Positions 598-50,762 of a stretch of DNA of 64,000 bases are shown one piece after another. The notes under the pieces were generated by a model, which was given only the letters and a program-made list of their open reading frames with translations, was not told the origin of the DNA and made no database searches. The DNA comes from a virus (Duplodnaviria; Caudoviricetes): the IMG/VR virus record IMGVR_UViG_3300037310_000131, positions 9,446-73,445 of that record; one strand, 5' to 3'. Every line of letters starts with the position of its first letter. Position 1 is the first letter of the stretch. Made by a program: the position numbers and the translations under genes.

Positions 598-626
598 TTG
601 ACGGCCCCGGCCACCGCGTGTTTCTG
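598..626 (+). promoter_or_regulatory. Putative sigma70-type promoter for the RNA island
   Basis: TTGACG at 598-603, 17-nt spacer, weak -10 (TTTCTG), directly upstream of the array. Confidence 0.35.
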
Positions 627-632
627 TGGTCC

Positions 633-793
633 CAGTTCAAGATGGCCTTCAGGGTTGAGCCACCATCAACCTGACTCGGGAAAGGCTTTCCGCAGAACCA
701 ATCCGCCAAGTGGCGAGAGGGTCTGAAGCGATGTTCATTTTAGTTGTAGAGGACAGTGAGCGGAACCCTGCGGGGTATGGCCTTGTCCTCAAC
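633..793 (+). ncRNA. Structured RNA of unknown family
   Basis: CTTCAG/CTGAAG closes three hairpins; a second hairpin GAGGACA/TGTCCTC follows; no credible ORF. Confidence 0.4.
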
Positions 794-795
794 AC

Positions 796-870
796 GCCTC
801 AGTGATGTAGGAGTAAACATACGTCGTTGCCAACGATGATACCAGAGTGCGAATCTCTGCTGGGGCACCA
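796..870 (+). tRNA. tRNA-Gly(GCC)
   Basis: Cloverleaf; loop TT-GCC-AA; T-loop TGCGAAT; CCA. Confidence 0.9.
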
Positions 871-875
871 ATTTC

Positions 876-950
876 GGGTCGCAAGCATTTCAAGCGATGC
901 GCTAGGCTTTTACCCTTGAGAACTCGGGGCAGTACCGAGGCGACCCACCA
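876..950 (+). tRNA. tRNA-Lys(TTT)
   Basis: Acceptor GGGTCGC/GCGACCC; loop CT-TTT-AC; T-loop GGCAGTA; CCA. Confidence 0.88.
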
Positions 951-956
951 ATTTAT

Positions 957-1031
957 CGCGACTGACCAAGCAAGCGCATGGGCCTGCCCGCAAAGCAGTG
1001 AAGCCGGGAGCGTTACCCGGAGTCGCGTCCA
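957..1031 (+). tRNA. tRNA-Cys(GCA)
   Basis: Acceptor CGCGACT/AGTCGCG; U73; loop CC-GCA-AA; CCA. Confidence 0.85.
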
Positions 1032-1069
1032 CTTAGTTGCCAGTTTGGTATTCAACTGCAACCTTCACC

Positions 1070-1142
1070 TGGGGAGAGGCGCAGGCTCGAATCCTGCACT
1101 GGGGTAAAATCTCAGTTCGTATAGCGGATAGTATACTCCCTG
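1070..1142 (+). ncRNA. Circularly permuted tRNA-like element
   Basis: Order is T-arm (GCAGG-CTCGAAT-CCTGC), loop-closed acceptor (ACTGGGGT-AAA-ATCTCAGT), D-arm (GTAT/ATAC); TGGGG pairs with CCCTG. Confidence 0.65.
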
Positions 1143-1257
1143 CTCCAGCTATAGGCGACACAATGCCACTCAGTCTTGTAAGAAAAGCGCAGCAGTTTTT
1201 CTTACATGGTGCTCACGAAAGTTGTGCGACAGCCGGGAGAGACCGACACCTGAACAT

Positions 1258-1334
1258 GGGCCAAAAGCATTGTTGGTAATGCGCCTCCTTTGCACGGAGA
1301 ATGCTGGCGGGTTCGACTCCCCCTTGGTCCACCA
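1258..1334 (+). tRNA. tRNA-Ala(TGC)
   Basis: G3:U70; loop TT-TGC-AC; T-loop TTCGACT; CCA. Confidence 0.9.
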
Positions 1335-1339
1335 ATTTC

Positions 1340-1415
1340 GTGCGCGTGGCTCATATAGCTGAGCACCATCCTTCCAAGCTGGCCCAAGCAGGTGCAAGTC
1401 CTGTCGCGCACTCCA
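1340..1415 (+). tRNA. tRNA-Gly(TCC)
   Basis: Acceptor GTGCGCG/CGCGCAC; loop CT-TCC-AA; CCA. Confidence 0.88.
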
Positions 1416-1418
1416 TTT

Positions 1419-1478
1419 GGTCCTGCGGGCACTGCCGCCCGCTCCCCTCGGGGGCACCTGAAAGAACAGGTCTGGACC
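1419..1478 (+). ncRNA. 60-nt four-way-junction RNA of unknown family
   Basis: Stems GGTCC/GGACC, GCGGGC/GCCCGC, CCCC/GGGG and CCTG/CAGG. Confidence 0.45.
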
Positions 1479-1486
1479 CCCTTTTT

Positions 1487-1573
1487 CCAGTCGTGCCAGA
1501 GCAGCAATTGGAGTGCGCTGTAAACGCATTGCCCCAGCGGGCTACATAGGTGCAAGTCCTTTCGACTGGACCA
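1487..1573 (+). tRNA. tRNA-Tyr(GTA) with C1:G72
   Basis: Acceptor CCAGTCG/CGACTGG; loop CT-GTA-AA; long variable arm; CCA. Confidence 0.88.
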
Positions 1574-1579
1574 CTTCAT

Positions 1580-1656
1580 TGTCTCGTAGCTCAGATAGTC
1601 AGAGCGCCCGCTTGATAAGCGGTAGGTCGTCGGTGCGAAACCGACCGGGACAACCA
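1580..1656 (+). tRNA. tRNA-Ile(GAT)
   Basis: Loop TT-GAT-AA; acceptor TGTCTCG/CGGGACA; CCA. Confidence 0.9.
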
Positions 1657-1657
1657 T

Positions 1658-1975
1658 TTACACCACGACAATTCCTTCACGGATTTCGTGATGGCAGTTC
1701 GAGCAAACCAAAACACGCTTCTTGGCTTCTTCTAAAAGAGCCTCAAAGTTCTGGCCATGACCCTTGGTAGGGATGCCAAGTGACCTTTGTTGTGGGTCGC
1801 GGTGGTGAAAGTGAAGTGCAGATATGCAGGTTTTGTAGCCACAAGCACTGCGCTCGCCGCCAAATAGAGCAACAAGCCGTTGCTTGTTCTTGAGCCTGTT
1901 TACCTTGATATGTGCGTAGTTCCCTGTGCGTTTCTTTGAACCACCGGGAGCGGTAATAACTTTTGAAATAGACAT
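1658..1975 (-). CDS. HNH endonuclease (homing-like) inside the tRNA array
   Basis: ACGY...ALHFHHRDP...LVCSNCHHEI; two expected Cys appear substituted. Confidence 0.75.
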   Translation of the reverse strand: MSISKVITAPGGSKKRTGNYAHIKVNRLKNKQRLVALFGGERSACGYKTCISALHFHHRDPQQRSLGIPTKGHGQNFEALLEEAKKRVLVCSNCHHEIREGIVVV

Positions 1976-2010
1976 AGCTAATCAAATGACGATTAGCATG
2001 GTCTGTCGAT

Positions 2011-2082
2011 AGGGCCGTGGCGAAGTCGCCAAGCAGAACTCCAAATCCTGTTATGGGAGCGCAATACTCTCCGGCTCTGCCA
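2011..2082 (+). tRNA. tRNA-Trp(CCA), reduced D-arm
   Basis: Acceptor AGGGCCG/CGGCTCT; loop CT-CCA-AA; CCA. Confidence 0.8.
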
Positions 2083-2088
2083 ATTTAT

Positions 2089-2199
2089 GTTAGAGATAGC
2101 AGTCACAGCGTACGTCGCGTTCTGGATGATCCTTCTTCCGGCGCGGCGTAAGAACTAGCAAATCAACAGGGCGAGCGGCCCACTCCGCCGCCCTTTAAC
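2089..2199 (+). ncRNA. Structured RNA of unknown family
   Basis: Closing stem GTTAGAG/CTTTAAC, long hairpin TACGTCGCG/CGCGGCGTA and hairpin GGGCG/CGCCC. Confidence 0.45.
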
Positions 2200-2204
2200 T
2201 TTCT

Positions 2205-2279
2205 GGGCGTGTAGCTGAGATAGATTAGCGCGTGTCTGAAGAACACGAGACGCTGGAGCGTTACCAGCCTAGCCCACCA
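2205..2279 (+). tRNA. tRNA-Phe(GAA)
   Basis: Loop CT-GAA-GA; two acceptor mismatches; CCA. Confidence 0.8.
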
Positions 2280-2284
2280 CTTTA

Positions 2285-2356
2285 TGCCGGGAGCTTCGGA
2301 AGCCGGCAAGGCTCATACCCTTGTCGAAGCACGTTCGACCCGTGCCCCAGCACCCA
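2285..2356 (+). tRNA. tRNA with CAT anticodon (Met or Ile2), tiny D-loop
   Basis: CAAGG-CT-CAT-AC-CCTTG; T-arm GCACG-TTCGACC-CGTGC; CCA. Confidence 0.7.
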
Positions 2357-2425
2357 TTTGGGCCAACGCAGTGAAAAGTACCGAAATGCCAAAGTAGCGA
2401 AAATCGAGTCGTTGTGCCCATTTAT

Positions 2426-2501
2426 CCATCCGAAGTGTTATCTGGTTGCACGTTCCGTTTGGGGCGGAATTGTCTCGGTTCAAATCCGGGCGGGTGGACC
2501 A
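2426..2501 (+). tRNA. tRNA-Pro(TGG)
   Basis: TTCCG-TT-TGG-GG-CGGAA; CCA. Confidence 0.88.
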
Positions 2502-2507
2502 CTTTAT

Positions 2508-2582
2508 GGGGCTATGGAGTAGTGGTAACTACAGCGCACTGTCCATGCGCAGTCCGGGGTTCGATTCCCCGTAGCCTCGCCA
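2508..2582 (+). tRNA. tRNA-Asp(GTC)
   Basis: GCGCA-CT-GTC-CA-TGCGC; G73; CCA. Confidence 0.9.
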
Positions 2583-2587
2583 TTTAT

Positions 2588-2663
2588 GCGCGATTAGAAT
2601 AGCGGCTAATTCGACAGTCCTACACACTGTTCATCGGGGGTTCGAGTCCCTCATTGCGCACCA
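2588..2663 (+). tRNA. tRNA-Val(TAC)
   Basis: ACAGT-CC-TAC-AC-ACTGT; CCA. Confidence 0.88.
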
Positions 2664-2688
2664 CTTTATTGTTGACTGCGTATATCTG

Positions 2689-2862
2689 GTGTGTACTGAA
2701 ACATGGATTAGTTGCCATATAGATAAAACCTTGCACAAGAACGGACAATGCCGGGCAACACATGGCAAAATAAGGTGTTATCAAAACGGATGCAGGTGCG
2801 AAAGGTGTCGCGCAGCAAACGCAGAGCGTTCTAGAATTTATAGAGCAAAGTCTTTATTGTAG
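2689..2862 (+). pseudogene. C-terminal remnant of an HNH-type endonuclease
   Basis: Frame reads VCTETWISCHIDKT...THGKIRCYQNGCRCERCRAAN, resembling the CxxCH-KT and HG-GCRC tail of phage HNH proteins; N-terminus absent. Confidence 0.5.
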
Positions 2863-2933
2863 AGAAGGCAAATGGCTAGCCGGTTGTCTGTTAAACAACG
2901 TCGTTGATAGTTCGATTCTATCCTCTACAGCCA
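2858..2933 (+). tRNA. tRNA-Asn(GTT)
   Basis: GTTGT-CT-GTT-AA-ACAAC; G73; CCA. Confidence 0.9.
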
Positions 2934-2937
2934 CTTC

Positions 2938-3012
2938 GGGTCGGTAGCTCAGCGGTAGAGCGTTCGATTGTTAATCGAATGGTCATTGGTTCAATCCCAA
3001 TCCGTCCCTCCA
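2938..3012 (+). tRNA. tRNA-Asn(GTT), second copy
   Basis: TTCGA-TT-GTT-AA-TCGAA; U73; CCA. Confidence 0.85.
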
Positions 3013-3013
3013 G

Positions 3014-3089
3014 CCCCGCTTAGCTCAGCAGTTAGAGCGTCTGCCTGACATGCAGAAGGCGGCTGGCGCGACACCAGCAGCGGGGACCA
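3014..3089 (+). tRNA. tRNA-Val(GAC)
   Basis: TCTGC-CT-GAC-AT-GCAGA; CCA. Confidence 0.9.
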
Positions 3090-3090
3090 T

Positions 3091-3166
3091 CGGAGCCTAG
3101 CCTAGCGGTTGAGGCACTTGTTTCGGGAACAAGACGAGGCGAGTTCGACTCTCGCGGCTCCGACCA
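3091..3166 (+). tRNA. tRNA-Pro(CGG)
   Basis: CTTGT-TT-CGG-GA-ACAAG; CCA. Confidence 0.92.
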
Positions 3167-3172
3167 TTTTAT

Positions 3173-3248
3173 GGACCATTGGTGTAGCGGCACTGCACGT
3201 CGAGCTTTGAACTCGAAGGTCTTGGGTCAGCACCAAGATGGTCTGCCA
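3173..3248 (+). tRNA. tRNA-Gln(TTG)
   Basis: TCGAG-CT-TTG-AA-CTCGA; CCA. Confidence 0.88.
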
Positions 3249-3253
3249 ATTTC

Positions 3254-3327
3254 CGCCCTCTGGTGTAGTAGTAGCACCACGGATTCTGAACCCGTTAGTC
3301 TTGGAGCGTAACCAAGGGGGGCGGCCA
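3254..3327 (+). tRNA. tRNA-Gln(CTG)
   Basis: ACGGA-TT-CTG-AA-CCCGT; CCA. Confidence 0.87.
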
Positions 3328-3390
3328 TTTTAGTCTCGCGTACCATGAGTACAAGGAGCAACGGCCCCGTATTTTTGCGCGGCCAGCCAA

Positions 3391-3610
3391 TTTCCAGCAG
3401 GAGCGCATTCGCTGTTCGCAAATTGCGAATGGAGGAAGTTCGCGTCTGCGCAACACACCGAGGCAGGGCTTGTTCTTTGGTTCAAGTCCGCTATGACCTC
3501 ATGGTAGCAGCAACCCAAACAGACTGAGGATGAGTGTTGTCCTGCGATGTCGGGTTGGGGCTTAGACAAATGAATGCGGTCAACAGAAACGCGGCTACGT
3601 CCACTGGAAA
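3391..3610 (+). ncRNA. rnpB: Minimal RNase P RNA (catalytic domain with vestigial S-domain)
   Basis: CR-I GAGGAAGTTCGCGT and CR-V ACAGAAACGCGGCT form P4; P1, P2, P3, P5, P6, P15-P17, the L15 GGT and CR-IV TAGACAAATG can all be drawn. Confidence 0.85.
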
Positions 3611-3617
3611 AATTTTT

Positions 3618-3692
3618 GGAAGCGAAGCCACAGTAGACGGGCACCCGGCTCTTACCCGGATTTCGTGAGGCTGCGACTGCCTCCGCTTCCAC
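3618..3692 (+). tRNA. tRNA-Lys(CTT)
   Basis: Acceptor GGAAGCG/CGCTTCC; loop CT-CTT-AC; CCA. Confidence 0.87.
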
Positions 3693-3696
3693 CACC

Positions 3697-3753
3697 TTCC
3701 AGTCAAGATGCCGTAAACTCACAGTGTGTGTTCGGGACCTTCATCTTGGCTGG
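3697..3753 (+). ncRNA. Long hairpin RNA of unknown family
   Basis: 12-bp stem CCAGTCAAGATG/CATCTTGGCTGG with inner pairing. Confidence 0.4.
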
Positions 3754-3760
3754 GTTCTTT

Positions 3761-3832
3761 GGCCGGTGATTCAGCAATCCACAGGGTTTCATAAGCCCAG
3801 TGAATCGGGGGCAGCACCCGGACCAGCCACCA
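3761..3832 (+). tRNA. tRNA with CAT anticodon (Met or Ile2), short D-arm
   Basis: AGGGT-TT-CAT-AA-GCCCA; T-loop GGCAGCA; CCA. Confidence 0.72.
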
Positions 3833-3836
3833 ATTT

Positions 3837-3912
3837 GCCTGTGAAGTTCATATAGCTGAACGTGTCCTTGGTAAGGACAATGCAGCGGGTGCAAGTCCCG
3901 CCTCAGGCTCCA
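3837..3912 (+). tRNA. tRNA-Thr(GGT)
   Basis: TGTCC-TT-GGT-AA-GGACA; CCA. Confidence 0.9.
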
Positions 3913-3913
3913 T

Positions 3914-3996
3914 GGGCGCGTGGTTAACTACGAATAGCAGAGTATTCTGCCTTAGAAGCAGACAGCCTTGGGGGTGCAAGTCCCTCCGCGCCTACC
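3914..3996 (+). tRNA. tRNA-Leu(TAG)
   Basis: TCTGC-CT-TAG-AA-GCAGA; A73; CCA. Confidence 0.82.
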
Positions 3997-4004
3997 AATT
4001 TCAT

Positions 4005-4079
4005 GGCCCAATCGACAACCAGCTAAGTCACTGCGCTTTCAACGCGGAGTACCGGGGGCAGCACCCGGTTGGGCTACCA
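4005..4079 (+). tRNA. tRNA-Glu(TTC)
   Basis: CTGCG-CT-TTC-AA-CGCGG; CCA. Confidence 0.87.
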
Positions 4080-4085
4080 CTTCAT

Positions 4086-4160
4086 GGCCGCATCGTATAG
4101 AAGTCAGTACGCTGCCCTCTCAAGGCAGGAACCCCGGAGCGTTACCGGGTGCGGCTACCA
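4086..4160 (+). tRNA. tRNA-Glu(CTC)
   Basis: CTGCC-CT-CTC-AA-GGCAG; CCA. Confidence 0.88.
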
Positions 4161-4163
4161 TTT

Positions 4164-4248
4164 CGCCAACTGGATGGAATAGCAGACACGGGGCACTCAA
4201 AACGCCCTGCCGAAAGGCGTCCCGGTGCAAGTCCGGGGTTGGCGACCA
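4164..4248 (+). tRNA. tRNA-Leu(CAA)
   Basis: Loop CT-CAA-AA; long variable arm; CCA. Confidence 0.87.
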
Positions 4249-4249
4249 C

Positions 4250-4342
4250 GGTCCCGTGGTGTAATGTTAGCACCGCTAGTTTTATAAACTGGGCGCACTA
4301 GATTGGTGCCGTGTGCTGGTTCAAGTCCAGCCGGGACTACCA
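4250..4342 (+). tRNA. tRNA with TAT anticodon (Ile-AUA) and long variable arm
   Basis: CTAGT-TT-TAT-AA-ACTGG; variable hairpin GCACTA/TGGTGC; acceptor GGTCCCG/CGGGACT; A73; CCA. Confidence 0.8.
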
Positions 4343-4346
4343 CTTT

Positions 4347-4421
4347 GGTCTGTAAGTGTTGAGAGATACACGCGGCTTTCGTAAAGCTGAATACTCGGAG
4401 CGTTACCGAGACGGACCTCCA
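4347..4421 (+). tRNA. tRNA-Thr(CGT)
   Basis: CGGCT-TT-CGT-AA-AGCTG; CCA. Confidence 0.88.
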
Positions 4422-4425
4422 TTTT

Positions 4426-4501
4426 GTTCTGCAAGCATTGCTGGCGATGCGGCTGCCTTGTAAGCAGCAGATAGTCGGTTCGATTCCGGCGCGGAACTCC
4501 A
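4426..4501 (+). tRNA. tRNA-Thr(TGT)
   Basis: GCTGC-CT-TGT-AA-GCAGC; CCA. Confidence 0.9.
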
Positions 4502-4502
4502 T

Positions 4503-4580
4503 CAGGAGCAGTAGTGTAACCGGCAAACACAGGAGCCTGTGAAGCTCCGGTAGAGAGTTCGAGCCTCTCCCTCCTGACCA
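4503..4580 (+). tRNA. tRNA-His(GTG), atypical acceptor
   Basis: GGAGC-CT-GTG-AA-GCTCC; A73, no genomic G-1, 2-nt bulge in the acceptor; CCA. Confidence 0.75.
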
Positions 4581-4584
4581 CTTT

Positions 4585-4660
4585 GCAAGACTCGGCAATG
4601 GATAGTCAGTCTCCCCGCGAAGGAGGTTTAGTCCCAGTTCAAGTCTGGGGTCTTGCGCCA
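4585..4660 (+). tRNA. tRNA-Arg(GCG)
   Basis: TCTCC-CC-GCG-AA-GGAGG; CCA. Confidence 0.83.
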
Positions 4661-4754
4661 TTTGCTTGACACAGATACCGATATTACAAATGCCGTTGCG
4701 AACTGTGTAGAAAAGCGTCTACAGAGGCGTCAAGGAAATGGAGACAATCACTTT

Positions 4755-4830
4755 GTCGCGTTCAGCCAAGCAGACAGGCGCTGGTCTTCTAAGCCAAGCA
4801 ATGCGGGTGCAACTCCTGCACGCGGCACCA
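4755..4830 (+). tRNA. tRNA-Arg(TCT)
   Basis: Loop CT-TCT-AA; acceptor GTCGCGT/ACGCGGC; CCA. Confidence 0.86.
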
Positions 4831-4833
4831 TTT

Positions 4834-4908
4834 GCTCCATTCGTCCAATGTATAGGGCCTGCGTCTTCGGAACGCATGATGAGGGTTAGATTCCTTCATG
4901 GAGCGCCA
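4834..4908 (+). tRNA. tRNA-Arg(TCG)
   Basis: TGCGT-CT-TCG-GA-ACGCA; T-loop TTAGATT; CCA. Confidence 0.87.
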
Positions 4909-4909
4909 C

Positions 4910-4985
4910 TTTCTCGTAGCCTAAGGGATAGGCCCCGGTTTCCTAAACCGTGCGCATGCAGGTTCGAGTCCTGTCGAGAAAGCCA
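4910..4985 (+). tRNA. tRNA-Arg(CCT)
   Basis: CCGGT-TT-CCT-AA-ACCGT; CCA. Confidence 0.88.
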
Positions 4986-4989
4986 CTTC

Positions 4990-5057
4990 GGGCCAAATAC
5001 AGATTCGATTGGTCCTTCGGGCCCAAGACGCGGGGGCGGTGCCCGCTTGGTCCACCA
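4990..5057 (+). ncRNA. ssrA: Mini-tmRNA (tRNA-like domain only)
   Basis: Acceptor GGGCCAA/TTGGTCC with G3:U70, A73 and CCA; stemless D-loop ending GATTCGA; GAC-GCGGG...CCCGC T-arm; P2 capped by cUUCGg. Confidence 0.8.
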
Positions 5058-5061
5058 CTTT

Positions 5062-5147
5062 GGAGACGCAATCCAGCAGGGCTGGAACGGGCCTTGAAAA
5101 CCCAGTGACGCGCAAGCGTTGGGATTCGACTTCTCGCGTCTCCGCCA
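5062..5147 (+). tRNA. tRNA-Ser(TGA)
   Basis: Loop CT-TGA-AA; long variable arm; G73; CCA. Confidence 0.85.
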
Positions 5148-5148
5148 C

Positions 5149-5236
5149 GGAGGGTGAACTGCTCAGGGAGCAGGGCGCTCTGGAAAGGCGTACGCCCGGT
5201 CAACCGGGTGGGTTTCGATTACTCCTCCCTCCGCCA
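5149..5236 (+). tRNA. tRNA-Ser(GGA)
   Basis: Loop CT-GGA-AA; long variable arm; CCA. Confidence 0.87.
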
Positions 5237-5240
5237 CTTT

Positions 5241-5326
5241 GGAAGCAACTGAGGGCAGTTCCTCAACCGGCCTCGAAACCCGGAGTGCCCGCAAGGGCAA
5301 TGGCGCAACTCCATTTGCTTCCGCCA
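5241..5326 (+). tRNA. tRNA-Ser(CGA)
   Basis: Loop CT-CGA-AA; long variable arm; CCA. Confidence 0.85.
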
Positions 5327-5327
5327 T

Positions 5328-5418
5328 GGTGAGTTAAGCAGCCGAGGCGCTGCCGGGGTTTGCTAAACCCTTGGACCGGCTAGCCCCGGTTGTGTGGCAG
5401 GAACACAACTCACCGCCA
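5328..5418 (+). tRNA. tRNA-Ser(GCT)
   Basis: GGGGT-TT-GCT-AA-ACCCT; long variable arm; CCA. Confidence 0.87.
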
Positions 5419-5476
5419 CTTTGTTCTTGCAATCGCCGCCGGGCGGGTACAAGGATGTCAACGAAACGCAACTAAG

Positions 5477-8681: not shown

Positions 8682-10913
8682 ATGGCGCGAAAACAGCAAA
8701 AACTGTCACAATCTGCAGACCTGCCCGACCTGACCGATGGAGAGGCCGATGCCTACGCGGAAAGCATGGGCAACGCACCAGAGGTTTCTCCACAGGGTCT
8801 TGAGGTACAAAACCGCACCATCACGTCGGTAGACCAAGCCGTCGGCGTCATCGAGGGCTTGGAGTTCGGTGCGCAAAAGCTGGTCAAGAACGCCGGCCGA
8901 ATTACGTCGCTGAAGCAGGGCAGGAAGCCGTACGACTCCAAGAAACTTGAGAAGCAGGGCAAGGGCTACAAGCTCAACATCAGCCCCGGTACGTTCTCGA
9001 CCACGCTGCGGCGCGTGGCCCCGCGTCTCTACATGCCCCTTCTGCAAGCGTCCACGCTGACGGCCGCGGAGCTCCCTGCCGGTACGATCAACGCCGAAGA
9101 GAAACAGAACCACTACCGTGAGGTCGTCACTCGCGCGATACGCTCATGGCCGCGCTGGCAGACGTTTGTGCGCCTCTTGGCCCAAGAGGTCGTGGATTAC
9201 GGGTTTGCCTTTGCCGCGTTCACCGACCCGTTCGAGTGGCAGCCGCACCTGTGCCGCATGGACCGTGGCTTCGTCCCGGCGGGCACCGAAATCATGGACC
9301 TCTCCCCGTCTTTCTTCGCGATGAAGTGGGACTACCAGCCCGACCAGCTCATTGGCATCGTGAAGGACGCCGAGGATGCTGGGGTGGCGGGATGGGACAA
9401 GGAGGCTGTTGCAAAGGCGGTTCAGGCATCTGCGCCGAGCACCGCGCCCCAGCGGGACCCCGTTGGCTGGCGCAAGTGGGAGGAGCTGGTTCGTGAGCAG
9501 GTCTGGAGCTACGGAACGTCCAAGAACTATCGCGTCATCGAGACGACTCACCTGTTTGCACTGGAGGCTAGCGGCAAGGTGTCGCACTACATTCTCAACG
9601 TGCGTGAGGACCACGCGGCCAATCTGCTGTACGAGAAGCACGACGCCTTTGAGAAGATGTCGGACGCCGTGATTCCAGTCACGTTCAACTCGACCGACGG
9701 AACCATCCATGGGTCATGGGGTGCTGGCCACCTGCTGTATGACTTGGGCGGCCTTTCCGAGAAAATCTTCTGTGACATGGTAGACAACCTGCGCAACGCC
9801 AACAAGCAGCGCCTGCAGGTAAACGACCCGAAGGACATCAATGATGTCAAGCAGGTTGTCAACGATACCGAGGTCATCGTGTCTGGGGCCCAGTTCGCCA
9901 ACAACATGGGCGGCGTTCAGCAAAACGTGGAGGCGTATATCAAGCTTCGCGACATCGTGCAGCAGACCATGGACTCCAAGGTTGGTGCCTACGTTCCGCC
10001 GATCCCGACGCAGTCCAGCGATGTCAAGGCCGCGCAGGTCAATGCGGCGATGCAGCAGGAGAAGGAGGTCAGCGACGACTCCATCGAGTTCTTCCTGAGC
10101 CAGATTGCATTTATCACCCATGCCATGAGTAGGCGTCTCACCGACCCGTCGTCCCCGAATGACGAGGCCAAGGAGGTGCTGAAGCGCCTGCGCGAGAAGC
10201 TGACGGACGACGAAATCAATACGCTGCGGCAGCAGCCCGTCATCCGCTCGGTCGCGGAGTTCACCCCGATGGCGGCGCAGGCCCGCGCCCAGTTCGCCGC
10301 CCAGTTCTTGGGTAATCAGCTCTACAAGCAGACGGAGCTGGCCCGCCTCACGGCAGAGGGCGTCCCGTTCGGTGGCACCCGCCTCGCCTCGCTTGTTGTC
10401 ATCCCGGATGGCGACCAGACGCAGCAGACCGTCGCCACCCGCGACCAGATCACCGAGAACACCACCATGATGTTCGGGGTCGAGGTTCCTGTCGCGATCA
10501 CCGACAACCACTGGGTCCACATGCAGGCGCTCAAGCAGCCGCTCATCGAAGGCGTCAACGCCAAGCAGTTCGGCCCCGCGCAGGTTGCGCTCAAGCACTA
10601 CGCGCAGCACTGGGCAACCGGCGTGGCTCAAAAGGTTCTTCCGCCAGACCAGATCAACACCGAGAAGTCCTTCATCGCCGACGTTGAGAAGGCCATCAAG
10701 AAGGGTTTGGAGCAACAGCAGCAGGAACAGATGCTTCAGCAGCAGATGGCCCAGCAGCAGCAAATGCCCCAGATGCAAGGTGGCGGGATGTCGCAAGGAC
10801 AAATTCCGGGTCTACCGGGCGAGCAGGGAATGCCAGTTCAGCAGGGCGTTCCAGAGTTCGGCCCGAATGAGGTGTCGCCAGCTGCATCCATGGGCGTACC
10901 ACAGGTGCAGTAA
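8682..10913 (+). CDS. Portal protein (head-tail connector), putative
   Basis: 743 aa, helical with Gln-rich tail; first gene of the head module, upstream of scaffold-like and capsid genes. Positional inference. Confidence 0.65.
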
Positions 10914-10927
10914 CATACTCCAACCCG

Positions 10928-12541
10928 ATGTCGCAAGGACCGCTAATTGGAGACAACACAAATCTGCTGCTTAACAAAATCAGCATGGCTGGCTACCGAC
11001 CTAAACTAAGCGATCCGCAGAATCTTCTCATCAAGAAGCTCGTCAACGCGATCAATCAGCTACAGACTGGAGGTGGCTCGACGGGTCCGACCGGATACAC
11101 TGGATACACGGGCCCAGCAGGTGGCGGCGGTGCGACTGGGCCCACGGGTTATACGGGACCGGCTGGTGCGGATGGCGCGACTGGTCCAACTGGTTACACT
11201 GGCTACACCGGCACGGCAGGCGCTCCGGGATCAACCGGCTACACAGGCTACACCGGACCCGCTGGTATTGATGGTGCCACTGGCTACACAGGCTACACCG
11301 GACCCGCTGGAGTAGACGGGGCGACGGGCCCCACGGGATACACGGGTTACACAGGTCCCGGCAACTTTACCGGATACACGGGCCCTACGGGTTACACGGG
11401 ATATACCGGGCCCAATGGGTCAAACGGAAGCACCGGCCCAACTGGTTACACCGGCCCGGCTGGTCCTGATGGTCTTGACGGCCCTACTGGCTACACGGGA
11501 TACACCGGTCCACGCGGAGAGACTGGGCCAACCGGACCAACAGGCTATACTGGTCCCGGAAACTTCACTGGATACACGGGGCCCACTGGATACACGGGCC
11601 CGGATGGAGCGACTGGCCCCACCGGGTACACTGGCCCCCAAGGCCCAACCGGATTCACCGGCTACACTGGCCCGGGCAACTTCACCGGCTACACTGGCTA
11701 TACTGGTTACACCGGTCCTCAGGGGGCAACCGGGTTCACTGGCTACACCGGCCCAATTGGTCCCACTGGCGCAACTGGCTACACGGGCCCGGGCAACTTC
11801 ACAGGATACACTGGACCAACTGGCCCGACCGGATACACCGGACCGGGGAATTTTACGGGGTATACAGGCTACACTGGGCCCGCCGGTCCAACCGGCTACA
11901 CTGGCGACACGGGTCCGCAGGGCCCGACAGGACCGACTGGGTACACCGGTTATACTGGTCCCGGCAATTTTACCGGATACACTGGCTACACGGGGTACAC
12001 CGGTTATACTGGTCCCGGCAACTTCACTGGGTACACCGGGCCAACGGGACCAACCGGGTACACCGGCCCAGCGGGCCCGACTGGCCCAACCGGCTACACC
12101 GGTTACACGGGACCATCAGCGCTCTACGCCGCAGCCACGGCTGGAACGACGACCTCAACAAGCTTGGTTGACCTCAATGGTCTTTCGCTTGCCCTTACTG
12201 CTGGCACTTGGATTTTTGAGGCACTCATAAGCGGAAGCGCGGGCACTGGAACGGCTGGTGCAAAGTTTGGTGTACAGTACTCAGGCTCAACTACGTCTAT
12301 TGATGCGCTTCATGTCGGCCAGCTCAACACCACGGGGTGGGCGGCAACGGCAAGGATAACGGCCTTCAATACCGCCAGCACGACTGTTATGACAACCAGT
12401 GCGGCCCAGTGCCATGTAAAGATATTCGGCAAGGTTGTTGTTGCTGGTTCCGGCAACCTTACCATCAGGGGCCTAAAGGTCACATCCGGCACCCTGACCT
12501 ACAACGGCTCGTCTATGATGTGGGCATTCAAGGTGGCCTAA
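10928..12541 (+). CDS. Collagen-like (Gly-X-Thr repeat) fibre protein
   Basis: Several hundred residues of GPTGYT/GNFT triplets with a globular beta-rich C-terminus. Confidence 0.85.
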
Positions 12542-18028: not shown

Positions 18029-21902
<3,874 letters not shown>

Positions 21903-21903
<1 letters not shown>

Positions 21904-22577: not shown

Positions 22578-22605
22578 TTGACCTGTCGCCCGCTTGCGCT
22601 ATGGG
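22578..22605 (+). promoter_or_regulatory. Putative promoter (leaderless transcript)
   Basis: TTGACC-16 nt-TATGGG; ATG 6 nt downstream. Confidence 0.4.
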
Positions 22606-22611
22606 TGGCGC

Positions 22612-24375
22612 ATGAGGTTTTCTGTTGTCCTGATTTGCCGAAACGAGGAGAAGACGATTCCGCGACTGATGGCCTCCCTGAGGGAGTTCCAGTCCCGGGG
22701 CGGAGAGGTAATCCTGATGGATACCGGCTCCTCCGACAAGAGCGCCGAAGTGGCCCGCGCCCATGGCTGCACAGTGCATGAGGTTGGGGAGCGCTTCATG
22801 GGCACCATCGACGACTCGCTGGCCGAGCGCATCAACAACTTCTTCCTGCGTGATCCCGGATATAAGATCGTTAGGGTCGGTGACAGGTACTTCGATTACT
22901 CCGCCGCCCGCAACTACGCGGCCTCCCTGTCCAAGACGGACATGGTGGCGATGCCGGACTGCGACGAGGAGTACACGAAGCTGGACTTGGACAAGATCAA
23001 CGATGTCATTGAGCGCGGCGCAGAGCAGCTCGAGTACGAGTTCGTCTTCGCCCACGCGCCTGACGGCAGCGACCTCATCAAGTTCCGCCACTGCAAGTTT
23101 TACAATCGCACCAAGCTGAAGTGGACTGGCGTGGTGCATGAGGTTCTGGCGGGCCACGCAAGCCGGGTCTACCTCGACACCTCTACCATCAAGCTTGAGC
23201 ACTGGCAGAACCCGTCCGACAATCGCACCCGCTATCTGACCGGGTTGGCGGTGGACTGCTACAAGAATCCCGACAACGACCGCAACTCACACTACTTCGC
23301 CCGGGAGATGCTGTTCTGCGGCCTGGCGAAGTCGGCCTACCATGAGTTCTCGCGCCACATTGCCATGAAGAAATGGCCAACAGAAGCCGCGCAAAGCATG
23401 ATATATCAGGGGGATGCGTTGATGATTATGGGCAAACGGGAGGAGGCAATTGCCCGCTGGCACGATTCCGTCACTCACTACGGAAACAGGCGAGAGGCGT
23501 GGATGCGGCTGGCCTCCCACTACCACAAGGCCAACGATTACCAGCGTGCGGCGAGCTACGCCAATGCCGCCCTCGCGGTTCCATATAACGACTTCTATGG
23601 AAACAACATGGAACACTATCGCCACGGGCCGCACGAGATTCTCTACTGGGCCTACTGGTGGCTCGGCGACAAGTCGGCAAGCTTCGAGCACTGGAAGCGG
23701 GCCAAGTCCTATTGGCCAGACAATCGCAAGTTCATGCACGACAGCGTGTTCTACCTAGACATGCTGCGCCCCAAGGTGGTGGTCATAATCCCGGCGCTGG
23801 GCGGCGACGGCAGGAGCGCCGACGAGACCCGGGACTTGGTCAAGCAGCGGGCGGGGTGGTGGAACACCGAGGTCGAGGTGGTCGTGGACGACCCGGCATG
23901 CCGCAAGGGCTGCCCAATCACCCTAAAGAGGGGCGTAGAGGGCACCCACAGCGACTTTGTGCTGTTCTTGGGGTCAGATTGCGTCCCGGAGAACGGCTTC
24001 GTTCTAAAGGCATTGGAGTGCATGTATCGGTCCTTCCCCGAGGCCGACGGACTGGTCGGGCTGAACGACGGAATCTGGAAGAAGGGGGAGATTGCCTGCC
24101 ACTGGCTGGCGTCCCGCAAGCTCCTGCCCCACTTGGATGGTGAGTTCTTCTACACCGGCTACCATCACCTAGGGTGCGACAACGAGCTTACGGCCCGCTG
24201 CCAACTCATGGGCAGGTATGTCTGGTGTGAGGAAGCCAAGATTGAGCACCGGCACCCAGCCTCTGGGTTTCCGGCGGACAAGACCCATGAACTCGCGTGG
24301 AGCAGGAAGGACGAGGACCGGGCCCTGCTGAGGTCCCGCGCCAAGGCCATGGGATTTGAGCACCTGCTTATTTGA
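22612..24375 (+). CDS. Glycosyltransferase family 2 with TPR repeats and a second GT-A-like domain
   Basis: FSVVLICRNEE, LMDTGSSD, YFDYSAARNYA, MPDCDE; central TPR-like helices; C-terminal VLFLGSDC...YHHLGCDNEL. Confidence 0.88.
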   Translation: MRFSVVLICRNEEKTIPRLMASLREFQSRGGEVILMDTGSSDKSAEVARAHGCTVHEVGERFMGTIDDSLAERINNFFLRDPGYKIVRVGDRYFDYSAARNYAASLSKTDMVAMPDCDEEYTKLDLDKINDVIERGAEQLEYEFVFAHAPDGSDLIKFRHCKFYNRTKLKWTGVVHEVLAGHASRVYLDTSTIKLEHWQNPSDNRTRYLTGLAVDCYKNPDNDRNSHYFAREMLFCGLAKSAYHEFSRHIAMKKWPTEAAQSMIYQGDALMIMGKREEAIARWHDSVTHYGNRREAWMRLASHYHKANDYQRAASYANAALAVPYNDFYGNNMEHYRHGPHEILYWAYWWLGDKSASFEHWKRAKSYWPDNRKFMHDSVFYLDMLRPKVVVIIPALGGDGRSADETRDLVKQRAGWWNTEVEVVVDDPACRKGCPITLKRGVEGTHSDFVLFLGSDCVPENGFVLKALECMYRSFPEADGLVGLNDGIWKKGEIACHWLASRKLLPHLDGEFFYTGYHHLGCDNELTARCQLMGRYVWCEEAKIEHRHPASGFPADKTHELAWSRKDEDRALLRSRAKAMGFEHLLI

Positions 24376-45946: not shown

Positions 45947-46293
45947 ACGAGCTCGAGGCATGGCTGAAGCGCAGGCCCAAGGGCAGGAAGCCTCGTAAGC
46001 GCATACGCCGGCAGTCGGAAACCCTCAGGCAGAAGATGGCCCGGTACCGGGCAGTCAGAGGGCGGTGGCTCTTGGGGCATCCCAAGTGCGAGATTGGACC
46101 AATCATCGAGGCAGCCGGGTACAAGGTGAGGTGCACCAGGGTGGCCACCCACCCGCACCACATGAAGGGCAGGGTGGGCGAGCTGCTGTTCGACACAAAG
46201 TTCTGGCTTGCCTCATGCAGCGGAGAATGCCATCCTGTGTGGGTACATCAGTCGCATGTGGCTGAGGCAAAGAAGCTTGGAATCACACTATGA
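45943..46293 (+). CDS. HNH-type endonuclease (NinG-like)
   Basis: HPKCE...ATHPHHMKGR...WLASCSGECH. Confidence 0.65.
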   Translation: MNELEAWLKRRPKGRKPRKRIRRQSETLRQKMARYRAVRGRWLLGHPKCEIGPIIEAAGYKVRCTRVATHPHHMKGRVGELLFDTKFWLASCSGECHPVWVHQSHVAEAKKLGITL

Positions 46294-47759
46294 ACAAAAT
46301 CATTCACGTTTGGTCCGGTGAGGCGCGGGATGAGGCAACGGCCCAGCGCATGGCCATGGCCAAGATAACATGGGAGCGCGAGCGCGCGGCCTACGGGGGG
46401 TGGCTGTCAATCCAGCATGAGGTCTCTCCGTCGCAGAACGCCACGCTGGTTGGCGATCCTGTTGCCCTTCCATTTATCCACGACATGGTGAACGATGCGT
46501 CGCGCCTGTGCGAGGACGGGAGCGACATCATCCTTATCACCAACGCGGACATCGGGCTGTTCCGTGGGTTCGCCACCGAGCTAGCGGCCAAGGTGTCTGC
46601 AAGCGGGGCGGTCTTCTGTCATCGCTGGGACTTTCCTGCGCTGGCCGAGCCGCTGCAGACCAAGGCCGGCATCAAGACAGGCAAGAAGTACCCGGGCATG
46701 GATGCGTTCGGGTTCTCTCGTCGCTGGTGGCTTGAGAATCGGGACGACATCCCGCCCTTCATCCTCGGAAGGGAGTGCTGGGACTGGATTCTCCGGGAGA
46801 AGATCAAGGAGACTGGCGGGACAGAGATGCAATCCGCCATCTTCCACATCGCGCACAATTCTGACTGGAAGAAGGGCCGCGCCAAGCACCCGGGCAACAT
46901 ATACAATCGCAGCTACGCGCGCGCATGGCTCATGAAGCGCAAGATGGACCTGCGGGAGATTGCCAACGCGCCGTACAATGAGGTAGCATGGCCGCCCGTG
47001 CAGTTCGCCAAGAGGCAAGCGCCCAAGCCGGCCGGCTCGGTGGATGTCCTGTACGTCATTGGCCGTGGCAGCAAGTGGGATAATCAGGAGCTGCGCTACA
47101 GCCTGCGTTCGCTTGAGAAGTACGCATGTGGCGTGGGTAACGTGTTCGTCGTCGGCCATGTCCCCGTGTTTCTGAGCGACAAGGTAACAACCCTGCAGAG
47201 AGAGGACTTCGGCAAGAACAAGGAGCACAACATTGCAGAGCAGATCGAGTTTGCTGCCGCCAACCTCAGCCTCAGCGAGCGGTTCCTGTGGGTGAACGAC
47301 GACTGCTTCTTCACACAGGAGACGGACATCACCGGATACCCGTACTATTCCGATGGCTCGTTGGAGGCCAAGTGGCGGTCAACGGCCATGAATGGGTACC
47401 GGGTTGCACTGGCTCAAGCGGATGCGCAGCTGCGCGCGCGTGGGTTCCCAACCCACAATTTCGAGAACCACGTGCCAATCATCTACACGCGCGCCGGCAT
47501 GGCCAAGATGGCCCCTTGGGTCAGGCTCTCCGGTCGCATGCCCTATGGCATGACCTTCCGCTCGGTCTACTGCAATGCGCTTGGCATTCCCCCGGGCCCC
47601 CAGTACCGGGACCTCAAGATTGGCAACTGCTCCACGCCGGCAGAACTGGAGGCGCGCATCAAGGGCAGGCATGTGTTTTCCATTGGCGACGGCTTCTCAG
47701 ATGCCGCCAAGGCGCACTTCGACGTCCTCTATCCAGAGAGATCATCCTACGAAAAATGA
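46290..47759 (+). CDS. GT-A-like domain fused to a Stealth-family (hexose-phosphotransferase) domain
   Basis: N-terminus paralogous to the C-terminus of 44417; DVLYVIG...ELRYSLRSLEKY...FVVG...FLWVNDDCFF matches Stealth CR2. Confidence 0.75.
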   Translation: MNKIIHVWSGEARDEATAQRMAMAKITWERERAAYGGWLSIQHEVSPSQNATLVGDPVALPFIHDMVNDASRLCEDGSDIILITNADIGLFRGFATELAAKVSASGAVFCHRWDFPALAEPLQTKAGIKTGKKYPGMDAFGFSRRWWLENRDDIPPFILGRECWDWILREKIKETGGTEMQSAIFHIAHNSDWKKGRAKHPGNIYNRSYARAWLMKRKMDLREIANAPYNEVAWPPVQFAKRQAPKPAGSVDVLYVIGRGSKWDNQELRYSLRSLEKYACGVGNVFVVGHVPVFLSDKVTTLQREDFGKNKEHNIAEQIEFAAANLSLSERFLWVNDDCFFTQETDITGYPYYSDGSLEAKWRSTAMNGYRVALAQADAQLRARGFPTHNFENHVPIIYTRAGMAKMAPWVRLSGRMPYGMTFRSVYCNALGIPPGPQYRDLKIGNCSTPAELEARIKGRHVFSIGDGFSDAAKAHFDVLYPERSSYEK

Positions 47760-48127
47760 AAAGAGCCACCGAGTTTCATGCCTGCTGCGCCCTCGTTGAG
47801 TGGTGGACCTACGCCTGCCGTGCGTACAAGGTGCCGGAGCAGACGCTGTTCCACTGCCCGAACGCATCGCCCGGCAGCATCAAGTACAGGGTCAACAACA
47901 AGCGCATGGGCGTACGGTCTGGCACGCCGGACTACTTCCTTGCCGTTGCGCGCGGGCCGTACCACGGAATGTTCATAGAGATGAAGGGCCCCGATGGGAG
48001 GCCCAGCCCCGAGCAGGTGGAAACACTGCGCATTTTGGGCTTGCAAGGCTACGCCACCGTGCTTTGCTATTCAACCGATGCGGCAAGAACCGCCATCGAG
48101 AACTACCTAAAACTCGCAAATCCATGA
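47756..48127 (+). CDS. VRR-NUC domain nuclease
   Basis: GVRSGTPDYFL...FIEMKGPDGRPSPEQ. Confidence 0.85.
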   Translation: MKRATEFHACCALVEWWTYACRAYKVPEQTLFHCPNASPGSIKYRVNNKRMGVRSGTPDYFLAVARGPYHGMFIEMKGPDGRPSPEQVETLRILGLQGYATVLCYSTDAARTAIENYLKLANP

Positions 48128-48249
48128 AGAGCAACAAGACACCATACACACTGCCTAGGCGTCAGTACTCCTACGTGGAGCGCGTTCGCCTGTCCATTGC
48201 CCGTGCGCTCCGCCGGTTGGCCAATCGGGTTAGCCCCGACAACTTCTGA
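48124..48249 (+). CDS. Hypothetical protein
   Basis: Coupled at both ends. Confidence 0.4.
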   Translation: MKSNKTPYTLPRRQYSYVERVRLSIARALRRLANRVSPDNF

Positions 48250-48635
48250 TGCGCCGCGTCATCCTTTCCGCCATGGTGGCGGCCTCTTTTGCACTGGCCA
48301 GCGCCAGAGAGCCCAACCGTTCGGCGCTGCTTGAGGCCATCCGCCTCAGGGAAAACAGCCACACGCGTGGCGCGGCCGGAGAGCTTGGGCCGTACCAGAT
48401 GGTGCCCAAGACCGTGCGCGATGCGGGCGGTTACGACCGTGCCGCCGCCACGCGCCATCTGATGTGGATTGAACGACAGCTCGCGCGCAAGCGTGTGGCG
48501 GTGAGTGCATTCAACATCGCCCTGTGCTGGAACGCCGGCCTTGAGCGCGCAACATCAGGCAGGGCCAAGGAGTCGAGCTACTGGTACGCTACGGATGTCG
48601 AGCGGATTTACCACTCCTTGCGTCCTCAACCATGA
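48249..48635 (+). CDS. Lysozyme-like / lytic transglycosylase (possible endolysin)
   Basis: Signal-like N-terminus; AIRLRENS..GAAGELGPYQM; CWNAG. Confidence 0.68.
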   Translation: MRRVILSAMVAASFALASAREPNRSALLEAIRLRENSHTRGAAGELGPYQMVPKTVRDAGGYDRAAATRHLMWIERQLARKRVAVSAFNIALCWNAGLERATSGRAKESSYWYATDVERIYHSLRPQP

Positions 48636-50675: not shown

Positions 50676-50762
50676 AGTGTTTTCTGTGTACACACTGACA
50701 CCGCGCATCAGGCAGTCAAATACTTATTGACGGAATGAGGCAAACACCCCAGCCTTTCCGCA

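Follow-up and report, generated by a model that had tools for sequence, protein, structure and literature searches.

Why does a phage genome carry an island in which tRNA genes covering all 20 amino acids are packed around a miniature RNase P RNA, and are the two made for each other? The question arises from bases 9446-73445 of the linear, 73,445-bp IMG/VR virus record IMGVR_UViG_3300037310_000131, a stretch of 64,000 nucleotides that we call the window, whose 4.8-kb island bears 38 tRNA genes (span 796-5418, + strand), 21 of them with an unusual G55 elbow. An original prediction, made from the letters of the window, held that ribozyme and elbows belong together. We find that the miniature ribozyme is not matched to the rewired tRNAs, and that the island is probably a tRNA supply module of the phage, in which multi-tRNA precursors would be cut by a phage ribozyme using the host protein RnpA.

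The miniature RNase P RNA (P RNA) lies between tRNA-Gln and tRNA-Lys, starting 3 nt past a CCA-ending unit and ending 9 nt before tRNA-Lys. Embedded so closely, it would be freed from the very precursors that it cuts. Its catalytic domain is complete: it is made up of P1-P5, P15, the conserved blocks CR-I, CR-IV, and CR-V, and a P4 helix with a bulged U. P1 (3393-3397/3604-3608), P2 (3404-3411/3571-3578), and the P3 hairpin (3415-3429) were read from the sequence, and P5 (3446-3449/3507-3510) and the P15-like helices are backed by compensatory changes in the family described below. CR-I reads GAGGAAG (3432-3438, GAGGAAAGUCC-like) and CR-V reads ACAGAA (3583-3588, ACAGAA..GGCUUA-like). P4 (3437-3445/3589-3596) forms where GAGGAAGUUCGCGU (3432-3445) pairs with ACGCGGCU (3589-3596), leaving U3440 bulged. 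The specificity domain (S-domain; P7-P14 with the CR-II/CR-III T-loop modules) is absent, a 57-nt stub (3450-3506) standing in its place. The archaeal P RNA model of Rfam (RF00373) aligns end to end with the element at 35.1 bits, skipping about 118 S-domain positions, for which the element has some 51-57 nt, and the alignment displays CR-I, P4 with its bulged U, the J5/15 sequence GCAAC, and the 3' block GCUUAGACAAAUGAAUGCGGUCAACAGAAACGCGGCUAC.

This RNA has many relatives. The 3' block GCUUAGACAAAUGAAUGCGGUCAACAGAAACGCGGCUAC occurs on 72 IMG/VR contigs, about 45 of which have CR-I just 116-200 nt upstream, as compared with 240-275 nt in full-size copies; the distance is 131 nt in the window. 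In the short forms, P1 extends over 8-20 bp and is always paired, its sequence being unrelated between contigs. In an alignment of 25 sequences, 18 of the 25 consensus pairs, including those of P4 and P5, show double compensatory changes, and the catalytic-core nucleotides and the P4 bulged U are invariant across these divergent copies. The covariance model R1, which covers CR-I to CR-V only and for which 18 viral copies were used with the window left out, gives one match in the 64 kb, at 3430-3599, with 115 bits and an E-value of 3e-29. The R1 match, the covariation, and the shortened span make it well supported that the RNA belongs to a conserved family of viral miniature P RNAs, which many uncultured phages have within their tRNA arrays; its catalytic activity is suggested by the invariant core. 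Full-size P RNA copies with an Escherichia coli-like motif are also present on viral contigs. The miniature family is uncatalogued, and we found no description of a virus-encoded RNase P RNA in the literature. A six-frame search of the record revealed no gene for RnpA, SmpB, or Ro (TROVE); since RnpA is lacking, the host protein is the likely partner of the ribozyme. The stub of the window copy contains the tRNA T-arm-like word GGUUCAAGUCC, other family members having a conserved GGGAGA...UCGUUUGUAC stub.

The tRNA genes around the ribozyme amount to a nearly complete decoding set. ARAGORN reports 24 tRNAs with default settings and 30 in the island with relaxed ones, and a whole-window Rfam search yields 17 at its gathering score, one restricted to the island 26 with 29 bits or more; only 26 of the 38 reach the gathering score for tRNA (RF00005), and all 38 have a cloverleaf and CCA. 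Our own cloverleaf scan, which requires an NCCA end, 7-nt loops, and a minimum of 6/7 pairs in the acceptor and 4/5 in the T stem, yields 35 tRNAs in the island, as compared with 8 matches in 58 kb of sequence outside it and an average of about 0.35 in shuffled islands, a background so low that the additional calls stand far above chance. With tRNA-Phe, called by ARAGORN, and the hand-checked tRNA-Cys and tRNA-Ser UGA, the total is 38, eight of which rest solely on our own criteria. All are on the + strand and end in an encoded NCCA, and 27 of the 37 spacers measure 1-7 nt and are U-rich. The base preceding the tRNA (N-1) is U in 27 of 38 cases, the residue preferred by bacterial RNase P. The 36 distinct anticodons read 54 of the 61 sense codons under strict wobble rules, which covers 89% of the 14,325 phage codons; should U34 read entire four-fold boxes, the figures rise to 60 of 61 and 100%. 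UUA, used six times by the phage, is the only codon without a reader. The original prediction is thus borne out as to the inventory: 38 tRNAs for 20 amino acids, on one strand, with encoded CCA throughout and many gaps of 1-7 nt, accompanied by a minimal RNase P RNA, a mini-tmRNA (transfer-messenger RNA), and a permuted tRNA mimic. Its statement that the window has no synthetase or tRNA-modifying gene also holds, as Pfam detected neither type of domain among the 44 open reading frames (ORFs).

Several individual tRNAs have uncommon features. C33 replaces the near-universal U33 in tRNA-Cys, tRNA-Val UAC, and tRNA-Arg GCG, and tRNA-Asp carries C37; comparable peculiarities of the anticodon loop have been connected with nuclease evasion in other cases. 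The 22-nt hairpin variable arm of tRNA-Ile UAU gives it a class II shape unexpected for isoleucine. The D arm is shrunken or atypical in three 72-nt tRNAs, tRNA-Trp and both tRNA-Met, and the tRNA-Met at 3761-3832 bears the initiator-type GGG/CCC mark in its anticodon stem, yet its position 1-72 is paired.

The elbows of the island tRNAs are rewired in an ordered manner. The 21 G55 T-loops fall into the classes TGC (9), AGC (5), GGC (4), and CGC (3). Sixteen of these 21 tRNAs lack the D-loop GG and have AG at the place of G18G19, whereas 16 of the 17 U55 tRNAs have GG (Fisher p 1.3e-5). In the AGCGTTA T-loop, T54-A58 is swapped to A54-U58, and in tRNA-Arg UCG, A56 and the D-loop GU constitute a compensatory U19-A56 pair replacing G19-C56. 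Other viral loci obey the same rule, with 95 AG+G55 versus 14 GG+G55 tRNAs and 153 GG+T55 versus 14 AG+T55 tRNAs; as the pairing holds in unrelated viral contigs, the A18/G55 tRNAs have kept their corner by compensating changes and are not decayed genes. The A18-G55 elbows, with their A54-U58, G54-G58, and U19-A56 variants, are a coherent trait in its own right, belonging to accessory tRNA arrays of a widespread class, and not a partner of the mini ribozyme. A literature search combining A18, G55, tRNA, and T-loop found no paper.

Near-complete arrays that are almost wholly A18/G55 are common on contigs of Verrucomicrobiota metagenome-assembled genomes (MAGs), where the T-loops show the same mix of TGC, AGC, GGC, and CGC as in the window. 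Examples are L320, L328, L354, L363, L364, L372, L389, L397, G066:C22:70000-89999 (L470), and G076:C29:246-258 kb (L468, L469), one array lying within a 376-kb contig; an array from an Opitutus MAG comprises 25 tRNAs with 24 anticodons, 24 of the 25 being G55. The genomes concerned also hold about 40 dispersed canonical tRNAs, a normal set that marks the arrays as accessory. The matching T-loop class mix hints at a Verrucomicrobiota host for the phage. Among the cultured phages Sham, CcrColossus, and BUDD, R1 has no match and Sham alone has a G55 tRNA. This single A18/G55 tRNA of Streptomyces phage Sham (L195, 69591-81657), a tRNA-Phe with T-loop TGCGTTA, is 89.6% identical over 67 bases to the tRNA-Phe of the window; the Sham tRNA island starts with a gene for a Ro-like protein and contains a full tmRNA. 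Xanthomonas phage BUDD (L197, 4410-8968 and beyond) has about two dozen unannotated tRNA genes in a 4.5-kb stretch annotated as gene-free.

If an S-domain-less P RNA suited rewired elbows, as the original prediction proposed, the two should co-occur across phage databases. Other mini P RNAs are surrounded by 397 GG/T55 tRNAs versus 12 G55 tRNAs: the tRNAs at about 40 such loci are almost all canonical (for instance 9/9 in L007, 24/25 in L012, 24/24 in L043, and 20/20 in L059). CCA is encoded in about half of these loci and absent from the rest. Conversely, a P RNA was present in 4 of 32 viral records chosen by a G55 T-arm (two reduced, two full size; 0/6 complete genomes), as against 2 of 32 chosen by a canonical T-arm, both reduced, in small samples without correction for phylogeny. 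No P RNA was found near Verrucomicrobiota A18/G55 arrays in any of 22 loci, for which the array loci together with 58 kb of flanking sequence were used instead of 12 whole MAGs, where R1 missed even the hosts' own rnpB; nor was one found within 24 kb of the Opitutus-MAG array. Each component thus occurs without the other, the independent occurrence that the original prediction had named as its own refutation, and the mini P RNA and the rewired elbows are separable in both directions. Within the window itself, the 17 canonical tRNAs are interleaved with the 21 rewired ones in shared, closely spaced runs, and a single enzyme must therefore cut both kinds.

These data make it very unlikely that the S-domain-less ribozyme is needed for A18/G55 tRNAs poorly read by host RNase P, in a pool that escapes tRNA-destroying defences. 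Apart from the canonical tRNAs around mini P RNAs, the similar record counts, and the common spacers of both tRNA kinds in the window, such a pairing is contradicted by the Opitutus-MAG array and 10 other G55-rich arrays without a P RNA nearby. The island tRNAs moreover retain G19-C56, which is the pair on which the S-domain of RNase P stacks. Phage tRNAs do evade tRNA-targeting defences through sequence changes, according to three reports (PMC10264068, PMC11464382, PMC11555353), but the cases on record concern anticodon loops, not elbows. In a broader scheme, to which we give little credence, the island would be an orthogonal translation-RNA kit: elbow-rewired tRNAs would be invisible to a corner-reading factor of the host or of a rival, such as a nuclease or a modification-dependent checkpoint, a corner-blind phage ribozyme would mature them once host RNase P has been shut off or is unable to do so, and the tag-less tmRNA domain would block or divert host ribosome rescue. 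If this were true, the "shadow" sets of elbow-rewired tRNAs carried by Verrucomicrobiota elements would act as a general means of counter-defence.

The other alternatives question either the enzyme or the beneficiary. The mini P RNA could be non-enzymatic, that is, a decoy or regulator (titrating host RnpA and stopping host tRNA maturation, for example) or a decaying relic of a captured rnpB. The absence of a phage protein subunit from the record and the retention of the protein-binding P2-P3 and J18/2 regions would agree with this, as would the reduced activity in vitro upon S-domain loss, the isolated catalytic domain being active but weaker (PMC5839562). We nevertheless regard it as unlikely, since the combination of an invariant core and P4 bulged U with covarying helices indicates selection on the active site, not decay, and the location within tRNA arrays suits a processing role. 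It is also rather improbable that the island is a self-mobile accessory cassette like the Verrucomicrobiota arrays, recently captured and serving its own spread or anti-defence instead of phage translation. The T-loop mix shared with MAG contigs that carry dispersed canonical tRNAs, the HNH gene and CxxC ORF remnant inside the island, and a GC content of 53% versus about 60% in the remainder all favour a cassette; however, the DNA similarity of the window tRNAs to the Verrucomicrobiota arrays is only 76-79%, over single tRNAs, the anticodon set matches the codon use of the phage, and neither integrase nor transposase was found at the island borders.

We therefore return to the tRNA supply module as the probable function of the island. 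The genes would be transcribed as a few multi-tRNA precursors, and the phage ribozyme with host RnpA would cut every tRNA 5' end; because the spacers are so short, each cut would leave the upstream tRNA with its CCA and a few bases, to be trimmed by host exonucleases. The added ribozyme would either raise the processing capacity or substitute for the host P RNA once host transcription stops, and its specificity domain would be dispensable if, as we propose, the protein together with CCA and leader contacts suffices. Of the replacement tRNA pool with its own maturation enzyme that the original prediction envisaged, the near-complete decoding set and the P RNA of a conserved family stand, and the tailoring to A18/G55 elbows falls. 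Several observations weigh against our interpretation. The best Rfam score of the P RNA is far below the gathering score of 84, and its stub differs from the family consensus in lacking the GGGAGA...UCGUUUGUAC motif. In addition, a reduced P RNA is present in each of the three G55-rich viral arrays whose records could be used (the window; G001, 13/24 G55; and G011, 24/27), as expected of a matched pair; their tRNAs are 77-84% alike, so that they may be one lineage, in which a weak association between mini P RNA and G55 may remain. Finally, a phage RnpA or other factors could sit in the missing part of the record, whose completeness is estimated at 81% by CheckV.

Besides tRNAs and P RNA, the island encodes two tRNA mimics. 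The element at 4990-5057 corresponds to the tRNA-like domain of a tmRNA: it has a G3:U70 acceptor, GAUUCGA as D-loop analogue, a short P2 capped by UUCG, GAC, a T arm (GCGGG/GGCGGUG/CCCGC), and ACCA. The alphaproteobacterial tmRNA model RF01849 matches the 3' half of the element, the T-loop GGCgGUA included, albeit weakly (17.6 bits in a 76-nt search), and the gap from acceptor to T arm spans only 33 nt, which form the UUCG-capped hairpin. No tag ORF, resume codon, or pseudoknot was identified in the element, and ARAGORN -m finds no tmRNA; without a tag frame it would be unable to tag proteins. Two 66-nt elements on other viral contigs (L126 and L173) share its plan and carry the GGUUUCGAC motif of the Sham tmRNA, with a compensatory change in the capped helix. 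Remnants of 66-110 nt consisting of the tRNA-like domain only lie at L126:(-)10004-10069, L173:(-)1134-1199, and L121:1804-1913(-), both 66-nt copies being followed by an A-run and then a TTGACA word. The region 2360-2421 was considered as a second tmRNA piece and dropped, since both a tag-like frame and a T arm are missing. In the circularly permuted element at 1070-1142, a variable region comes first, then a T arm, an acceptor that a UAAAA loop closes, and a D arm with GG, and there is neither CCA nor anticodon loop. Isolated siblings are present in L022, L025, L115, and L121, the L025 copy scoring 37.7 bits on RF02553; for 1070-1142 itself, a search admitting E-values as high as 10 gave no match to RF02553, and no Ro-binding stem could be recognised in it. 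The model also aligns across a tandem tRNA junction. The two elements are thus further tRNA mimics, which possibly bind host SmpB/AlaRS and a Ro-like factor.

The remaining spacers hold less structure and the array is less unitary than first proposed. The original prediction claimed at least five unassigned structured RNAs, but only three of the unassigned spacers fold better than shuffles (1416-1486, 2083-2204, and 3695-3760; z -2.4 to -3.7), while 604-795, 2357-2425, and 3328-3392 do not. The spacers 2664-2857 and 4661-4754 were rejected as structured RNAs, appearing rather to hold a 57-aa CxxC ORF, which overlaps the start of tRNA-Asn, and its startless, degenerate copy (KCRCELCRKA, about 4689-4750) before tRNA-Arg UCU. 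Together with the HNH gene, the CxxC ORF and its remnant suggest that the array was repeatedly invaded by small mobile genes. Nor does a single promoter, as supposed, appear to command the island: a promoter scan of the + strand detected no sigma-70-like site, no acceptable -10 element accompanies the TTGAC words at 598, 2671, and 4666, and a terminator-like hairpin and the opposite-strand HNH gene interrupt the array.

Table 1. Features of the translation-RNA island (window coordinates; z, folding relative to shuffled sequences).
Feature	Position	Strand	Evidence
tRNA-Gly GCC, T-loop TGCGAAT (G55)	796-870	+	
tRNA-Lys UUU, T-loop GGCAGTA (G55), D-loop AG	876-950	+	own cloverleaf scan only
tRNA-Cys GCA, T-loop AGCGTTA (G55), C33	957-1031	+	hand check; acceptor 7/7, T stem 5/5
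circularly permuted tRNA-like element	1070-1142	+	topology; siblings in other loci
tRNA-Ala UGC, canonical T-loop	1258-1334	+	
tRNA-Gly UCC, TGCAAGT (G55), D-loop AG	1340-1415	+	
61-nt three-hairpin RNA-like fold closed by GGUCC/GGACC	1419-1479	+	z -2.4; no homologue found
tRNA-Tyr GUA, long variable arm, TGCAAGT (G55)	1487-1573	+	
tRNA-Ile GAU, TGCGAAA (G55)	1580-1656	+	
HNH endonuclease ORF, 105 aa, inside array	1658-1975	-	phrog_2255, 1e-13
tRNA-Trp CCA, 72 nt, small D arm, CGCAATA (G55)	2011-2082	+	own cloverleaf scan only
terminator-like GC-rich hairpin and U-rich tail	2165-2195 (hairpin 2175-2191)	+	fold
tRNA-Phe GAA, AGCGTTA (G55); acceptor 5/7 paired	2205-2279	+	ARAGORN
tRNA-Met CAU, 72 nt, atypical D arm, canonical T-loop	2285-2356	+	
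tRNA-Pro UGG, canonical	2426-2501	+	
tRNA-Asp GUC, canonical T-loop, C37	2508-2582	+	
tRNA-Val UAC, canonical T-loop, C33	2588-2663	+	
57-aa ORF, GCRCERCR zinc-ribbon-like motif (GCRCERCRAANAERSRIYR)	2689-2862	+	z 0.2 as RNA; no Pfam match
tRNA-Asn GUU	2858-2933	+	
tRNA-Asn GUU	2938-3012	+	
tRNA-Val GAC, CGCGACA (G55), D-loop AG	3014-3089	+	
tRNA-Pro CGG, canonical	3091-3166	+	
tRNA-Gln UUG, T-loop GTCAGCA	3173-3248	+	
tRNA-Gln CUG, AGCGTAA (G55)	3254-3327	+	
miniature RNase P RNA, 216 nt	3393-3608	+	RF00373 35 bits; R1 115 bits; family covariation
tRNA-Lys CUU, TGCGACT (G55)	3618-3694	+	
long hairpin	3698-3754	+	z -3.3
tRNA-Met CAU, 72 nt, GGCAGCA (G55), GGG/CCC in anticodon stem	3761-3832	+	own cloverleaf scan only
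tRNA-Thr GGU, TGCAAGT (G55)	3837-3912	+	
tRNA-Leu UAG, TGCAAGT (G55)	3916-3997	+	
tRNA-Glu UUC, GGCAGCA (G55)	4005-4079	+	own cloverleaf scan only
tRNA-Glu CUC, AGCGTTA (G55)	4086-4160	+	
tRNA-Leu CAA, TGCAAGT (G55)	4164-4248	+	
tRNA-Ile UAU, 22-nt variable arm	4250-4342	+	
tRNA-Thr CGU, AGCGTTA (G55)	4347-4421	+	
tRNA-Thr UGU, canonical	4426-4501	+	
tRNA-His GUG	4503-4580	+	
tRNA-Arg GCG, C33	4585-4660	+	
tRNA-Arg UCU, TGCAACT (G55)	4755-4830	+	
tRNA-Arg UCG, T-loop TTAGATT (A56), D-loop GU	4834-4908	+	
tRNA-Arg CCU, canonical	4910-4985	+	
tmRNA tRNA-like domain only, 68 nt	4990-5057	+	sequence; 3' half matches RF01849
tRNA-Ser UGA	5062-5147	+	hand check
tRNA-Ser GGA	5149-5236	+	
tRNA-Ser CGA, CGCAACT (G55)	5241-5326	+	own cloverleaf scan only
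tRNA-Ser GCU, GGCAGGA (G55)	5328-5418	+	own cloverleaf scan only

The record that harbours the island belongs to an uncultured phage. The only sequencing runs containing it are two freshwater DNA metagenomes, which may be its source, and no RNA run was among them. No close relative was found with megablast or blastn among 50,697 deposited phages (INPHARED) beyond single-tRNA matches, and the DnaB helicase used as a query retrieved no related loci, a DnaB search in five candidate records being empty as well. Most of the proteins are orphans, and PHROGs and Pfam left the majority of structural genes without a name; those recognised comprise an RNase H (147-593), the DnaB helicase, collagen-like tail fibres, a 2271-aa LPD38 protein, HNH nucleases, and sugar-modifying enzymes. 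The collagen-like (G-x-T) tail-fibre genes of the window (10928-12541, 18307-21903, 22594-24375, and 46290-50708) adjoin genes for a GT2-TPR glycosyltransferase, a Stealth-like protein, a sugar dehydratase, and a C-methyltransferase, with which they form a possible virion glycosylation kit.

RNase P RNA is regarded as a universal cellular ribozyme, and a conserved viral family of half the bacterial size would be a natural experiment on the minimal RNA for tRNA 5' processing, as well as a potential compact ribozyme for the processing of tRNA arrays in vitro. The island is also a clean natural data set for elbow covariation (G18-U55 to A18-G55, G19-C56 to U19-A56, and T54-A58 to A54-U58), tied to complete accessory tRNA sets on phages and Verrucomicrobiota elements, and raises the question of what selects a second, differently cornered pool. 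Owing to the negative outcome of the co-occurrence analysis, the mini ribozyme and the rewired tRNAs deserve study as two separate phenomena.

When compared with known systems, the phage P RNA shares with bacterial type A RNase P RNA (E. coli M1 RNA/rnpB; RF00010, clan CL00002) P1-P5, P15, CR-I, CR-IV/V, the P4 pseudoknot with its bulged U, and the 3' motif UAGAyrAAUG...ACAGAA...GGCU. Unlike the bacterial RNA of about 380 nt, it measures 216 nt, has a 57-nt stub for an S-domain, and resides in a phage tRNA array without a cognate protein gene. In size it resembles the type T RNase P RNA of Pyrobaculum and relatives (RF02357; PMC13462272), which at about 200 nt has lost most of its S-domain and still performs cellular tRNA 5' processing. 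Type T is, however, archaeal and works with Pop5/Rpp30/L7Ae proteins, whereas the phage core motifs are bacterial-like, and no Rfam match of the window to RF02357 was retained; the likeness looks like convergent reduction, not membership.

The tRNA mimics also have counterparts. Jakobid mitochondrial tmRNA (RF02544) is likewise reduced to the tRNA-like domain. The G3:U70 pair, GAUUCGA, GAC with the T arm, and ACCA are all present in 4990-5057, whose T-loop GGCGGUG matches the consensus GGCgGUA of alphaproteobacterial tmRNA (RF01849). In contrast to both, 4990-5057, which gives no match to RF02544, is phage-encoded and in one piece, has its P2 capped by UUCG, and occurs in a record without SmpB. 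The element at 1070-1142 shows the same circular tRNA permutation, open at the anticodon stem, as YrlA, a bacterial and phage Y RNA (RF02553), from which it differs by the missing model match and by a record without a Ro/TROVE gene. As a whole, the island resembles the large tRNA clusters of phages T4, T5, XacN1, and Sham, single-strand arrays with homing endonucleases and small ORFs and sometimes tmRNA or Ro/Y-RNA parts, among which that of Xanthomonas phage XacN1 has 56 tRNAs for all 20 amino acids (PMC5852040). Unlike these clusters, it combines 38 tRNAs, over half of them with non-canonical T-loops, in a genome of about 75-90 kb with a P RNA of its own and a tmRNA reduced to its tRNA-like domain.

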